64,000 nt of DNA. Source: Polyangia bacterium (GTDB lineage Bacteria; Myxococcota_A; Polyangia; Palsa-1104; JAEUJZ01). The stretch covers positions 9,094 to 73,093 of the forward strand of contig JBGAUT010000011.1 of NCBI GenBank assembly GCA_044228505.1, given 5' to 3'. A model generated the notes under the pieces. That model searched no databases, was not told the origin of the DNA, and saw only the letters and a program-made list of their open reading frames with translations. Position numbers and translations under genes: made by a program. Each line of letters starts with the position of its first letter. The stretch's first letter is position 1. Positions 48,204 to 58,794 of the stretch are shown in pieces.

Positions 48204-48764
48204 ATGCCAATCCACGAAGAGCAGCTTCGCCGTGAGCAAGAACTCTTCGAAAAGAGTGAAGAGCAGCGAACGCACTCGACTGAGCGCCCCGAAGCGAGGG
48301 CCCACGAACAGGGCCAGCGAATGATCGAGGTGAATCATCGCATCGAGGCGGCGGAGCTTCACGACGCGCTGAAAGGCGAGGCCTTTAGCCAGACACAGCT
48401 CGCGGAACTGCCGACGCAGAGCGAGCCGACCAAACAAGCGGTGGAGCAGCTCTTCCATCACCTCGTCGAGCGGAAAGACAAGCCGCCAGCGGACCAGCTC
48501 AAGAAGCAACAGCGGACGACGACGCCAGTCGACCGCAAGACCGGTATGCGATCCCCCGAGCCAAGACACCGCGAACCGGATGACCTGTTTTCCACGGGAA
48601 TCGAGGGAGACTTTGTTCCCAATACCAAGATCGCGGCAGGGGAAGTCGATATTCACCCGGCACCCGATGAAGGGATCGATTGGGGAGGCGGCAAACCTCG
48701 CCGTCGTCGACTGGGCAAACCGGGCTCATTTGTCAAAAAGAAGCCACCAGCCGACGGCAAATAG
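48204..48764 (+). CDS. Hypothetical highly charged, low-complexity protein
   Basis: Host-like GC3. Lies 27 bp upstream of the AAA+ ATPase gene on the same strand. No recognised motifs; could be spurious. Confidence 0.3.
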   Translation: MPIHEEQLRREQELFEKSEEQRTHSTERPEARAHEQGQRMIEVNHRIEAAELHDALKGEAFSQTQLAELPTQSEPTKQAVEQLFHHLVERKDKPPADQLKKQQRTTTPVDRKTGMRSPEPRHREPDDLFSTGIEGDFVPNTKIAAGEVDIHPAPDEGIDWGGGKPRRRRLGKPGSFVKKKPPADGK

Positions 48765-48791
48765 CCGACCTGGGGCCGTAACTGTAAGGAG

Positions 48792-51017
48792 ATGACGTCG
48801 CCGATGAGCGCAGCAGCAACCGAGTCAGAGCGGCAAGCCGCCGAGCAGTGGCTAGCCGCCGAGCTTAACCGTATGTGGCTGGTCGCCGAGCGATGCCTAC
48901 GCCAGTTTCAGCGCGCCCAGCTGAGACCGCAGCCCGACAATCCGGCGCTGGCCGAGGTGGAAGGAATCTTCACCGCTCGTCGCGCTGCCCGAGGTGGTCT
49001 GTCGAGCGGCCCGATGGACGAAGCCGAGCTCTCGCGAGCGATTACCGAGGTCGAGGGCACTCTGTTCGCGCTCCGTCGAGCAGCGCCCATCGGACGGATG
49101 ATCGAAAACCTGGGCCTGTCACCGCTAGAGGTCGAAACGCTGGTGGTCGCGATGTCACCGCACATCGACGCACCGCTATCGGACGTCTTCTCACTGCTTC
49201 GTGGTTCACCGAGCCGTCGTGGCGTGGACCTATCGCTGGTGGCGCAGCTTTATCAGCTCCGGCGCAGTGATCGGCTTCAGCTACTCGATGCGCTTGATCC
49301 AGAGCGGCCACTGCTCGCGTGGCGCATGATCCAGGTGATCTCGCCCGATTCGATGGAGGGCTATAGCTCGGTCAACTACCGGGCGATTATGCCGACGTTC
49401 GACGTGCTATCGGCGTTGACAGGACGGGCAGAGCTGGCCCCGGCACTGGCGAAGACCTCACGGATCGTCCGTGGCGAAAAGCGGCTTGATGATTTGGTGC
49501 TATCCGACTCGCTCCGCCAGAAAGCCGAACGACTGTGTGCGATGGCCGAGCAGGCCGTCCAGCAGCAGCAGCTTGCTCACATGCCGTGGCTCCTATTTTG
49601 GGGCCCAAAGGGCATTGGGAAACGCGAGCTTGCGTCGCGAATCGCGGCGTACTGTGGTCGTCCGATGCTGCAGTTTGACCCGACCGGTGCCGAGCCGGGC
49701 TCGCTCGACGATCTGCTGCGGCGGGCCCAGCGGGAGGCGCTGCTCCGAGGGGCGGTGCTCTACCTTGGACCACTGCGCGGCGAGCTGCTAAACGACAATG
49801 GCCGTGAACTCATCAAGCGCATTCTGACGTACCCATCCATGCTGATCCTGGGAGTCGAATCGCTGCTCCCGCCACGAATCAACGTCGATCACAGCATGCA
49901 GGAGGTGCAGCTATCGAACCCACCCGAGCCGGCGCGTCTGATCTTGTGGCAGCGGGTGATTCCCGAGTCGATTCGGGCTGCCGATCTCAACCTGCCCAGC
50001 ATTGCTCGGGCTTTCCATTTGTCGCCGGGCGAGATCATCGATACTGGCGCTGAGGCCCAAGAGCTGGCATCGCTCAGTCCAACGGGAACGATCAATCACG
50101 ACCAGCTCCGCGCTGGTATTGATCGACGGCTGCGTAACGATCTGGGGGATATGGCAAAGCGTATCTCCGTCTCGGCGCGCTGGGACGATCTGGTCCTGCC
50201 CGATGAGGATACGGCGCGTATCCGCGAATTTATCGGTCGAAGCAAGTACGCCTACATGGTCTACTCCGACTGGGGATTCGGTCAGCGCGTCGGCTACGGC
50301 AAAGGCATGATTGCGCTATTTTCGGGCCCACCGGGCACCGGTAAGACCATGCTTGCGGGGCTGATTGCTCAGGCTCTCGACTTGGACGTTTATCAGGTCG
50401 ACCTGGCGCAGGTCGTCAGCAAATGGGTCGGCGAGACGGAAAAGCAGCTCGCCAAGGTCTTCGACGCCGCAGAACGCGCTCACGCCGTGCTGCTCTTCGA
50501 CGAGGCCGACTCTTTGTTCGCCAAGCGTACCGAGGTCAAGACCTCGAATGACCGTTACGGCAACCTCGCCGTCAACTATTTGCTTCAGCGACTAGAGCAG
50601 TACAGTGGCGTCGTCGTCATGACGACCAACAAGGAAGCATCGCTCGATGAAGCACTACAGCGCCGACTCACGCTACACCTTCACCTTGAAGTTCCCGAGC
50701 CGCCTGAGAGAGAGCGGCTGTGGAAGTCGATGCTGCCTCCCAATGCGCCTTGGGCCAAAGACATCAACTGGAAGTCACTGGCCAAAGATTACGAAATCTC
50801 CGGCGGTTACATCAAAAACGCGGTGCTGCGTGCAGCGTTCCTTGCCGCCGAGGCCAACTCGCCGATTAACATGGTGCTCCTGCGCCGTTCCGCCTCGCTG
50901 GAAATGGAGGATATGGGTCGCCTCATCGCTCGCACTGGCCGGGCCGGTGTAGCTGGCGTCCCATCACTGCTCGGAACCTCGCATCGAGAGAGCAGCGAAG
51001 GTCACGGTCGCGCCTAG
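48792..51017 (+). CDS. Tandem AAA+ ATPase (degenerate D1 + canonical CDC48/FtsH-type D2) with ~250 aa N-terminal domain
   Basis: D1 reads LLFWGPKGIGKRELA, a degenerate Walker A. D2 reads [14 protein letters not shown] with LLFDEADSLF (Walker B), TTNKEASLDEALQRRL (sensor/Arg finger) and SGGYIKNAVLRAA. Confidence 0.8.
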   Translation: MTSPMSAAATESERQAAEQWLAAELNRMWLVAERCLRQFQRAQLRPQPDNPALAEVEGIFTARRAARGGLSSGPMDEAELSRAITEVEGTLFALRRAAPIGRMIENLGLSPLEVETLVVAMSPHIDAPLSDVFSLLRGSPSRRGVDLSLVAQLYQLRRSDRLQLLDALDPERPLLAWRMIQVISPDSMEGYSSVNYRAIMPTFDVLSALTGRAELAPALAKTSRIVRGEKRLDDLVLSDSLRQKAERLCAMAEQAVQQQQLAHMPWLLFWGPKGIGKRELASRIAAYCGRPMLQFDPTGAEPGSLDDLLRRAQREALLRGAVLYLGPLRGELLNDNGRELIKRILTYPSMLILGVESLLPPRINVDHSMQEVQLSNPPEPARLILWQRVIPESIRAADLNLPSIARAFHLSPGEIIDTGAEAQELASLSPTGTINHDQLRAGIDRRLRNDLGDMAKRISVSARWDDLVLPDEDTARIREFIGRSKYAYMVYSDWGFGQRVGYGKGMIALFSGPPGTGKTMLAGLIAQALDLDVYQVDLAQVVSKWVGETEKQLAKVFDAAERAHAVLLFDEADSLFAKRTEVKTSNDRYGNLAVNYLLQRLEQYSGVVVMTTNKEASLDEALQRRLTLHLHLEVPEPPERERLWKSMLPPNAPWAKDINWKSLAKDYEISGGYIKNAVLRAAFLAAEANSPINMVLLRRSASLEMEDMGRLIARTGRAGVAGVPSLLGTSHRESSEGHGRA

Positions 51018-57734: not shown

Positions 57735-57816
57735 TCTGCCCCCACCCAAAGGTATTCTTTTGCCTTGATATGGCGGTAGTGGCGGTGCTTACGCAAGAAA
57801 GAGGGCGGACGGGAAC

Positions 57817-58794
57817 ATGGGTGCCAAGTTCAGCTCTGAGCTAGCGGCTCAAGGCGGGGTCGTAAGCCTCAAGCTACGAGGCGTTATCGACGAAGACAAC
57901 GAGCTGACTGGCATCGAAAGCCAGCTCTCGGCGGGCGTCACCGTCCTTGATTTGGCCGACATCGAGCGCATCAACTCGTGCGGGGTCCGCGACTGGGTGA
58001 ACTGGCTCGGTCGCATTGAAAAACTCGGCGCACGCCTGGTGTTCGTCAACTGTTCACCAGCCATCGTCGCGCAGATGAATCTTGTTCATAACTTTTCGGC
58101 GAGCGGCATCGTTAAGAGCTTCTACGCCCCATACTTCTGCCCGCGCTGCAACAAAGAGCGCCTCCTTCGGTTGGAGACCCGCGATCTGGTCCATCAGACC
58201 CCGATCACCTCGGCCCCTACCTGTCGCTGCGATGACTGCGACGGGCCGATGGACTTCGACGACATGGAGGAGTCCTATTTCGCCTTCATGAACAACCTGA
58301 AGAAGGTGCTGGGCGACAGCGCGACCGAGGAGATTCTGCAGGCGGTCGCAGCAGCGAGCGAAGGCGGTGCCAAGCAGCGGACCAGAGGGAGCAGCACGGG
58401 CATTACGCCCGCCACTGGACCCGGCCATACGCCAGCTACGCCGTCGACAGGAGCCCCTTCTTCGATATCTCCTGTGAACCGTACGCCGACGAGTCGTTCG
58501 CCAAGCGGCAACATCCCGACTGCCAAGACCCCTCCGGGAAACGCCCTATCGGGTCTGGTGGCACAGCAGGGTGAGGCTCCGACAAACTCGAGCGGCAACC
58601 ACCGCCCGGTTCAAAATGCTGTCACCGCTGGCACAATCGGGTCGGCCACACCGAACGCCACCGATAAGACATCCCTTGCCGCCGGTGGAGCCGCGTCGCC
58701 ATCATCGCTGGTCCGCACCATCATTCCCTGGCTTGGCCTCGCACTGTTTCTCATCGCCGCAATCGGCGTCCTCATCCTCGCCATTGCGAAGTAG
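57817..58794 (+). CDS. STAS-domain (anti-sigma-antagonist-like) protein with Zn-ribbon, Pro/Thr/Ser-rich linker and C-terminal TM anchor
   Basis: SpoIIAA-like fold (VVSLKLRGVIDEDN...VTVLDLADIERINSCGVRDWVNWLG...ARLVFVNCSPAIVAQMNLV). A CPRCN...CRCDDC cysteine cluster follows. The terminal helix is IIPWLGLALFLIAAIGVLILAIA. Confidence 0.55.
   Translation: MGAKFSSELAAQGGVVSLKLRGVIDEDNELTGIESQLSAGVTVLDLADIERINSCGVRDWVNWLGRIEKLGARLVFVNCSPAIVAQMNLVHNFSASGIVKSFYAPYFCPRCNKERLLRLETRDLVHQTPITSAPTCRCDDCDGPMDFDDMEESYFAFMNNLKKVLGDSATEEILQAVAAASEGGAKQRTRGSSTGITPATGPGHTPATPSTGAPSSISPVNRTPTSRSPSGNIPTAKTPPGNALSGLVAQQGEAPTNSSGNHRPVQNAVTAGTIGSATPNATDKTSLAAGGAASPSSLVRTIIPWLGLALFLIAAIGVLILAIAK

Follow-up and report, generated by a model that had tools for sequence, protein, structure and literature searches.

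Do four co-directional genes separated by short gaps encode one molecular machine, or two gene pairs that have become neighbours? The question is raised by a stretch of 64 kb of DNA from a Polyangia bacterium (contig JBGAUT010000011.1), called here the window, to which all positions refer unless another locus is named. Four open reading frames (ORFs) follow one another on its plus strand, encoding a small charged protein of 186 aa (48204-48764), an AAA+ ATPase of 741 aa (48792-51017), a giant tetratricopeptide repeat (TPR) protein of 2207 aa (51111-57734) and a STAS/Zn-ribbon protein of 325 aa (57817-58794). The initial annotation had given these four ORFs, their strand and the gaps between them (27, 93 and 82 bp), all of which were re-derived identically, and it had interpreted them as a four-gene operon, suggesting one membrane-associated machine. 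The comparison of orthologous loci presented here, with family calls made in Pfam, NCBIfam and PADLOC, leads to another interpretation. Thus, the block probably consists of two independent modules of two genes each, pair A (small protein and ATPase) and pair B (TPR and STAS proteins), which came to lie side by side in one lineage and are followed by the housekeeping genes for TldD and PmbA, rather than a four-gene system.

One Machine or Two Gene Pairs

Pair A was compared across ten orthologous loci, with ATPase identities of 51-100%, and is kept as a pair in all ten. The surroundings of the ATPase orthologues were seen up to 10 kb on each side; among the seven loci that bear on the question, L169 is short and the other six have 10 kb of downstream DNA. 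In none of the seven is a TPR or STAS gene found downstream of the ATPase, which is 86% identical to that of the window in L168, 73% in L169, 71% in L084, 62% in L085, 60% in L001, 56% in L002 and 51% in L003. In all seven, a small gene without a Pfam match lies upstream of the ATPase gene on the same strand, coding for 184, 197, 192, 136, 213, 243 and 223 aa, respectively; the small gene is the immediate neighbour except in L169, and their stop and start codons often overlap.

For pair B, STAS loci were collected from two long contigs and from 80 more obtained in a metagenome scan, their neighbours being tabulated by tblastn. In the two long contigs, a TPR protein of 2079 aa (L086) or 2141 aa is encoded directly upstream of the STAS gene, with no ATPase or TldD nearby. 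Where 1.2 kb or more of upstream sequence is available, the part coding for the TPR C-terminal domain immediately precedes STAS, in the same orientation, in 43 of 44 loci, and the TPR and STAS proteins can be regarded as functionally linked because of this adjacency. This near-absolute linkage between giant TPR and tail-anchored STAS proteins across Myxococcota is the strongest single result of the analysis. The ATPase and its small partner are present upstream of pair B in 3 of the 11 loci whose upstream sequence extends for 9.4 kb or more (L088, L090 and L091), whose STAS proteins are 95-99% identical to that of the window. TldD is encoded downstream of STAS in 5 of the 36 loci that have 2 kb or more of sequence beyond it; these five (L088-L092) form one close clade with STAS identities of at least 95%. 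At 89% STAS identity (L093) there is no TldD in the 10 kb downstream, and at 77% (L100) the approximately 700 bp upstream of the TPR gene contain no ATPase.

Taking into account that the four-gene order is confined to near-identical relatives, and that each pair is kept separately elsewhere, it follows that pairs A and B are conserved independently. The single operon and machine of the initial annotation are not supported by these data, since the genes occur independently in related genomes, an outcome that the annotation itself had named as its refutation: pair A without TPR or STAS in seven loci, and pair B without the ATPase in 8 of 11.

What weighs against the two-pair interpretation is that the window and its three closest relatives keep six genes co-directional and with short gaps. 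Co-transcription of the pairs, and a lineage-specific functional link between them, may therefore occur, given these six co-directional genes, their short gaps and a consensus scan that found no terminator between the ATPase and TPR genes; it found none in the other intergenic gaps either, although promoter and terminator scanning was uninformative on operon boundaries. A stronger version of this idea is that the four (or six) genes are one operon for a single membrane-associated remodelling or signalling machine, whose ATPase acts on the TPR or the STAS protein. It would be in line with the co-directional arrangement (the gaps of 27, 93 and 82 bp are followed by one of 59 bp between STAS and TldD), with its maintenance in L088, L090 and L091, and with the lack of terminator-like sites. 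However, retention in near-identical relatives is what descent alone predicts, the arrangement has already gone at 86% ATPase identity (L168) and is missing at all the more distant orthologue loci, and eight of the eleven TPR-STAS loci with enough upstream DNA do not have the ATPase. A single machine is thus very unlikely, and two independently conserved pairs are the preferred reading.

The ATPase and Its Small Partner

The ATPase of pair A has in its N-terminal part a winged-helix region, the WHD domain (PF22977, aa 96-188, 49077-49355, +; E 1.4e-8; 35.1 bits, with the cut-off at 27), which is annotated in nearly all its homologues. It is followed by a first AAA module (D1) whose P-loop, GPKGIGKRE (aa 271-279, 49602-49628, +), is degenerate: only G271, G276 and K277 are invariant in the orthologues, the residue after GK is R, K or A, and an acidic (DE) Walker B is missing. 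The second module (D2; PF00004, aa 509-632, 50316-50687, +; E 2.6e-32) retains, in an alignment of 12 orthologues, an invariant Walker A (GPPGTGKT), pore loop (KWVG), Walker B (DEAD), sensor-1 (TTN) and arginine fingers (RR), and is predicted to be an active AAA module of the classical clade. The closest solved structures are the D2 rings of VAT, CDC48 and p97, in alignments limited to D2. Both the PF00004 match and the motif alignment agree with the two-ring enzyme, with an inactive D1 and a canonical D2, that had been described in the initial annotation. In the database, about 100 cluster representatives are 51-99% identical to this ATPase, after which identity falls abruptly to 42% or less; this sharp drop delimits the orthogroup. 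Its members are named as Kofleriaceae, Myxococcales and Deltaproteobacteria, with some metagenome-assembled genomes assigned to Pseudomonadota; GCA_020633495.1 and GCA_964554495.1 are two assemblies in which an orthologue occurs.

A resemblance to the ATPases that accompany contractile injection systems (CIS) had also been noted, and it can now be specified as family membership, by sequence and architecture, without the injection genes as context. The ATPase is 28-35% identical, over residues ~80-725, to ATPases encoded in extracellular CIS (eCIS) clusters, including those of L007, L012, L016, L024 and L030 (31-34% over residues 82-725); as the alignment spans these residues, the homology takes in the N-terminal region and D1. 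The loci come from a contig profile search with the ATPase alignment, in which generic AAA patterns (PPGTGKTM, VSKWVGET) were chosen and paralogues of at most 53% identity were the only sequences returned. The search was therefore unfit for orthologue synteny and was reused for placing the family among the eCIS ATPases. In the neighbourhood of twelve paralogue loci (120 ORFs, batch Pfam), Pvc16_N was detected in 7 ORFs, tube gp19, eCIS_core and sheath in 5 each, and DUF4280, Phage_base_V and T4_baseplate in 2 each, polymorphic-toxin domains being frequent as well. When checked individually, L007, L012, L016, L024 and L030 have Pvc16_N, sheath, GPD hub or eCIS_core directly beside the ATPase.

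On these sequence comparisons, the ATPase is assigned to the Pvc15/Afp15 family. Pvc15 combines a deficient D1 with a DEAD-box D2, and recognises the disordered N-terminal leaders of its payloads (PMC11495950). Both ATPases have an N-domain, a catalytically deficient D1 and an active-type DEAD-box D2, with pore loops, and both are associated with a disordered polypeptide. They differ in that no injection cluster is found around the ATPase studied here, either among the scanned ORFs of the window or within 10 kb in the seven orthologous loci, and that it is paired with a small charged protein bearing a conserved motif of its own; moreover, it shares about 30% identity with the eCIS-linked members, compared with 51-99% inside its own orthogroup.

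The small protein has no family match in Pfam, NCBIfam or PADLOC. It is highly charged and of low hydrophobicity (18% D+E, 17% K+R and 19% hydrophobic residues), a composition of the disordered type; the high charge agrees with the initial annotation, and the near-neutral balance does not fit the description as acidic given there. The proteins encoded upstream of the ATPase orthologues are alike in composition. In an alignment of these partners from six loci, G132, D136 and F137 are invariant, and the conserved segment DFVPNTKIAA (aa 136-145, 48609-48638, +), contained in the motif peptide GIEGDFVPNTKIAAGE, corresponds to the common motif G-x(3)-DF-[VIK]-x-[DN]-[ST]-x-I-[AS]-A. When 2.08 Mb of fetched DNA were searched in six frames, the strict motif was restricted to these upstream small proteins and was not found beside the eCIS-linked ATPase paralogues. 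The segment is a candidate for docking on the ATPase. The 186-aa ORF can be considered a real gene, because the orthologous ATPases are preceded by a partner with the same short motif; its codon-position GC pattern is that of the neighbouring genes.

Some pair A loci contain further genes of interest. In L169, an inserted aldehyde dehydrogenase gene (8457-10004, +) separates the gene of the small protein from that of the ATPase, overlapping the start of the latter, and the database entry P0100 unites WHD and Aldedh domains in one protein. In L003, where the ATPase is the most divergent of the orthologues (51%), the gene after it encodes an 1872-aa toxin-type protein (12160-17778, +), which was tested as a possible TPR homologue and rejected, its sequence being FG-GAP/Rhs-like. 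L001 (7452-9185, -) and L002 (7465-9156, -) contain, upstream of pair A and divergent from it, genes for homologous proteins of 563-577 aa with no Pfam match and 33% identity, which may be a clade-specific third partner in these Kofleriaceae-type loci.

The TPR-STAS Pair

TPR matches in the first protein of pair B span aa ~605-1803 (TPR_19, 109 bits; TPR_8, TPR_7, TPR_2 and TPR_1, ~67-82 bits each), all above the Pfam cut-offs. No signal peptide or transmembrane segment is visible at the N-terminus, and the protein is predicted to be a cytoplasmic scaffold. With the 2079-aa homologue of L086, it shares 42% identity across 1651 aa. As in the initial annotation, where a distinct non-TPR C-terminus of ~350 aa had been pointed out, the last ~275-370 aa have no Pfam match, and they have no sequence or profile match in the PDB. 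They include an orphan globular domain (aa ~1935-2207, 56913-57731, +) with the motifs ERRFLLGR..LRGGY and AERAGLLAADD. A word-indexed homologue search with this domain gave 7 matches; it was replaced by an exhaustive search in HMMER, for which the final 368 residues served as query and which retrieved 118 cluster representatives. In every long protein (~1,850-2,420 aa), the domain is at the extreme C-terminus, the remaining matches appearing to be fragments. The AlphaFold2 (AF2) model (pLDDT 81, pTM 0.82) consists of two TPR-like hairpins and, after them, a domain that is first mixed alpha/beta and then helical.

In Myxococcus, GltI/AgmK and SgmX are giant or polar TPR scaffolds; they have in common with the window protein the very long cytoplasmic TPR arrays that serve, in Myxococcota, as platforms for protein assembly. 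The TPR protein of the window matches the NCBIfam model of SgmX at 16.9 bits, against a cut-off of 1800, a similarity at the level of the TPRs, and GltE weakly. In contrast to these scaffolds, the family described here has its own orphan C-terminal domain and an obligate STAS neighbour, with no motility genes linked to it.

The second protein of pair B scores below the cut-offs of the STAS sequence models (PF01740, 18.0 against 22.6 bits; PF13466, 19.5 against 29.2; TIGR00377, 18.0 against 53.45). Its fold was confirmed structurally at the level of a model: the AF2 prediction for residues 1-175 (pLDDT 81), which has a beta-hairpin at 101-120, points to a SpoIIAA-like STAS fold, as Foldseek finds TM1442, the Haliangium structure 4hyl, SpoIIAA and RsbV with a probability of 1.00, E-values of ~1e-4 and target-normalised TM scores of up to 0.73. 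A search with the first 175 residues returned 889 homologues at E<=1e-3, most of them of ~300 aa and 55-62% identical, those that are named belonging to Myxococcota or Polyangia. Of the first 163 positions, about 65 do not vary across 35 homologues, and RINSCGVRDWVNWL is among them. A Cys-rich ribbon, C108-x2-C111 ... C136-x-C138-x2-C141 (58138-58239, +), whose five Cys are invariant in 35-36 homologues, may bind a metal. In the homologues, a variable P/S/G-rich linker leads to a conserved hydrophobic C-terminal segment, which in the window protein would be a tail anchor (aa ~302-324, 58720-58788, +). Thus, the model and Foldseek matches, the invariant Cys and the hydrophobic tail sustain the earlier picture of a STAS-fold protein with a Cys ribbon and a transmembrane segment.

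Ser54, in the sequence RINSCG (codon at 57976-57978, +), is likewise invariant among 35-36 homologues. The phospho-acceptor of SpoIIAA is Ser58. Using hhalign, INSCG is paired with MDSSG of SpoIIAA, and Ser54 with Ser58, the first Ser of DSSG, in a weak alignment (E 0.043); BLASTP of the STAS protein against SpoIIAA gave no match. The likeness to SpoIIAA/RsbV-type modules comprises the fold, with anti-sigma antagonists as the closest structures, and, in one clade, a PP2C (SpoIIE-type) phosphatase as a neighbour of pair B; the invariant Ser, in view of its weak alignment, may be a further point of likeness. By contrast, the STAS domain is joined here to a Cys-rich ribbon and, at the C-terminus, to a predicted membrane anchor, and its partner gene encodes a TPR protein of ~2,200 aa rather than a kinase or an anti-sigma factor, with no RsbW-type kinase nearby.

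A PAS protein and a HAMP-SpoIIE (PP2C) phosphatase are encoded beside pair B in 15 of 36 loci, all of them from that clade, with STAS proteins 54-62% identical to that of the window. The PAS_4 and (dCache-)HAMP-SpoIIE genes of L086 (14517-16468), L087 (9604-11808) and ~13 more loci vary in orientation and distance, and further TPR proteins often come after them; neither L086 nor L087 showed a HATPase_c kinase. Downstream of STAS there is no universal third gene in the loci compared, and a SEC-C-motif protein, a beta-propeller-like protein or a glycogen phosphorylase is found in individual clades instead.

Proposed Mechanisms and Alternative Roles

Building on the conservation of the gene pairs, their folds and motifs and the family placement of the ATPase, we infer the physical interactions and the phosphorylation step of the following scheme. 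In module A, the ATPase would be a stand-alone hexameric unfoldase, with a structural, non-catalytic D1 and a D2 ring that threads the substrate by means of its intact KWVG pore loop. The small protein would dock on it through the conserved DFVPxTxIAA-type motif, as substrate, adaptor or regulator, in a manner comparable to the recognition of disordered payload leaders by Pvc15. In module B, the tail anchor would hold the STAS head at the inner (cytoplasmic) face of the membrane, beside the cytoplasmic TPR mega-scaffold. The STAS head would then bind the scaffold, most plausibly at its C-terminal domain, and tether it to the membrane or release it. The result would be a switch of the partner-switching type, whose state Ser54 phosphorylation possibly governs. 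STAS partner-switching with non-sigma outputs operates in SypA-SypE, HsbA-HsbR and BtrV-BtrW-BtrU.

Several observations speak against parts of this scheme. For module A, the protein upstream of the ATPase in L003 is G/N/Y-rich and has no obvious DF motif, and a contractile-injection cluster may lie farther away than the 10 kb seen on each side of an orthologue. For module B, the correspondence of Ser54 to the SpoIIAA phospho-acceptor depends on the weak alignment mentioned above; neither the PAS protein nor the HAMP-SpoIIE phosphatase of L086 has a homologue in the window, and among the ORFs scanned there is no match to PP2C (SpoIIE) or to an RsbW-type kinase (HATPase_c).

Different roles can also be envisaged for the individual proteins. 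Taking into account the family that it shares with eCIS-embedded ATPases, the ATPase could be a trans-acting loader for an injection system encoded elsewhere, and the small protein a payload, a leader-bearing cargo or a chaperone. The binding of disordered N-terminal payload leaders by Pvc15 (PMC11495950), and the 1872-aa toxin-like neighbour of the L003 orthologue, would fit this possibility. However, scanning the ORFs of at least 220 aa in the 64-kb window revealed no gene for sheath, tube, baseplate, Pvc16 or eCIS_core, there is no contractile-injection gene within 10 kb of the seven orthologues, and the motif of the small protein does not appear beside the eCIS-linked paralogues. Adjacent CIS genes are missing from all eleven loci sampled (51-100% identity), which suggests a CIS-independent role, and loading in trans is judged unlikely; if correct, it would refine module A and leave the two-module interpretation unaffected. 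Pair A was also considered as an anti-phage defence pair akin to IetAS, since IteA/IetA is the top NCBIfam and PADLOC match of the ATPase. This candidate was rejected and is extremely improbable: the match is limited to the D2 AAA module and, at 118.8 bits, stays far below the cut-off of 510, an adjacent IetS-type protease is lacking, PADLOC returns nothing for the small partner, and the neighbourhood consists of chromosomal housekeeping genes.

With regard to pair B, the C-terminal domain of the TPR protein might be a catalytically dead M48/gluzincin-like fold used for binding, in which case the protein would be a cytoplasmic counterpart of BepA (M48 + TPR) with the order inverted. The top Foldseek matches of its model, all weak, are rich in zincins (ZMPSTE24, the putative Zn-peptidase 3c37, ACE2, BepA and abylysin), and an ADRAGLL motif resembles the 'EADxxG' segment of M48, a likeness that we take as a lead only. 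BepA/YfgC would thus share with the TPR protein a TPR array and possibly a zincin-like globular domain, with BepA itself among the weak fold matches. Nevertheless, HExxH is absent, nothing in the PDB is significantly similar to the model (best Foldseek E-value 0.18), Pfam and PDB profile searches are empty, and the TPR protein has the reverse domain order and is predicted to be cytoplasmic. A dead peptidase is therefore improbable. The interpretation that we maintain is that of two separate modules, an ATPase with its small partner and a TPR scaffold with its STAS protein.

Neighbouring Genes and Other Features of the Window

The same-strand run extends beyond the STAS gene to TldD (58854-60299, +; 516 bits, just over the cut-off of 513) and PmbA/TldE (60283-61737, +), in which PmbA domains are detected. 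They are housekeeping neighbours, outside both pairs.

At the other end of the block, an antisense ORF of 633 aa (46755-48656, -), resembling Ala-racemase-N/D-threonine-aldolase, overlaps the 186-aa gene. Its 5' part is probably a spurious extension, because Ala_racemase_N, its sole domain, does not begin until aa 253. The true start is probably an internal ATG at 48086, which would leave a divergent intergenic region of 117 bp before the 186-aa gene. In the close relatives L088 and L168, the Ala-racemase-N-like gene is apparently missing at this position, and a homologue of the window ORF at 45297-46565 abuts the small-protein gene.

A second STAS cluster is located at 28189-32783 (+). Its genes encode a FIST sensor (28189-29370), a protein with a STAS domain (29339-30118, +; PF01740, E 3e-13) and a HEAT-repeat protein of 873 aa (30162-32783, +), so that here again a STAS gene stands beside one for a long helical-repeat scaffold. 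The window also encodes two FHA/sigma-54-activator (NtrC-type) regulators (14645-16093, -, and 35689-37107, +), and a comparable FHA-sigma54 gene is situated just upstream of the small-protein/ATPase pair in L003. The N-terminus of a 470-aa ORF (8713-10125, +) matches Anthrax_toxA (PF03497, E 2e-19), a toxin-type domain that is unexpected in a chromosomal setting. Finally, at 62659-63693, a 335-aa Cys-rich repeat protein (DUF7107) is encoded on the minus strand, and the 317-aa ORF opposite to it on the plus strand is probably spurious.

Conclusions and Perspectives

The locus illustrates that co-directional genes with short gaps can reflect a recent chance juxtaposition, and one speculative machine is replaced by two sharper, testable units. 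The searched literature contains no paper dealing with PF22977 or with a TPR-STAS pair of Myxococcus, and neither pair is described there; both are uncharacterised Myxococcota modules. Pair A is new as a contractile-injection-type ATPase outside an injection cluster, and pair B as a STAS switch with an unusual fusion and an unusual partner.

It is tempting to join the proposals made above, in such a way that the TPR-STAS pair would be an undescribed, Myxococcota-wide partner-switching output, in which phosphorylation of Ser54 toggles recruitment of the scaffold (set by PAS/HAMP-PP2C proteins in one clade), and the orphan Pvc15-like ATPase and its partner would have been co-opted for an injection-independent role. 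This joint proposal is put forward tentatively, the chances being against its holding as a whole.

With 43 of 44 loci and a STAS family of ~900 members, pair B ranks among the uncharacterised gene pairs with the strictest conservation in this analysis, and, if the proposal is true, partner-switching would be extended to a membrane-tethered STAS protein with a giant scaffold as its output. ATPases of the Pvc15/Afp15 type are currently studied as cargo loaders of engineered protein-delivery syringes. Pair A indicates that such ATPases also exist stand-alone, with a dedicated partner that is predicted to be disordered, and this small protein could reveal how the Pvc15/Afp15 family recognises its substrates.

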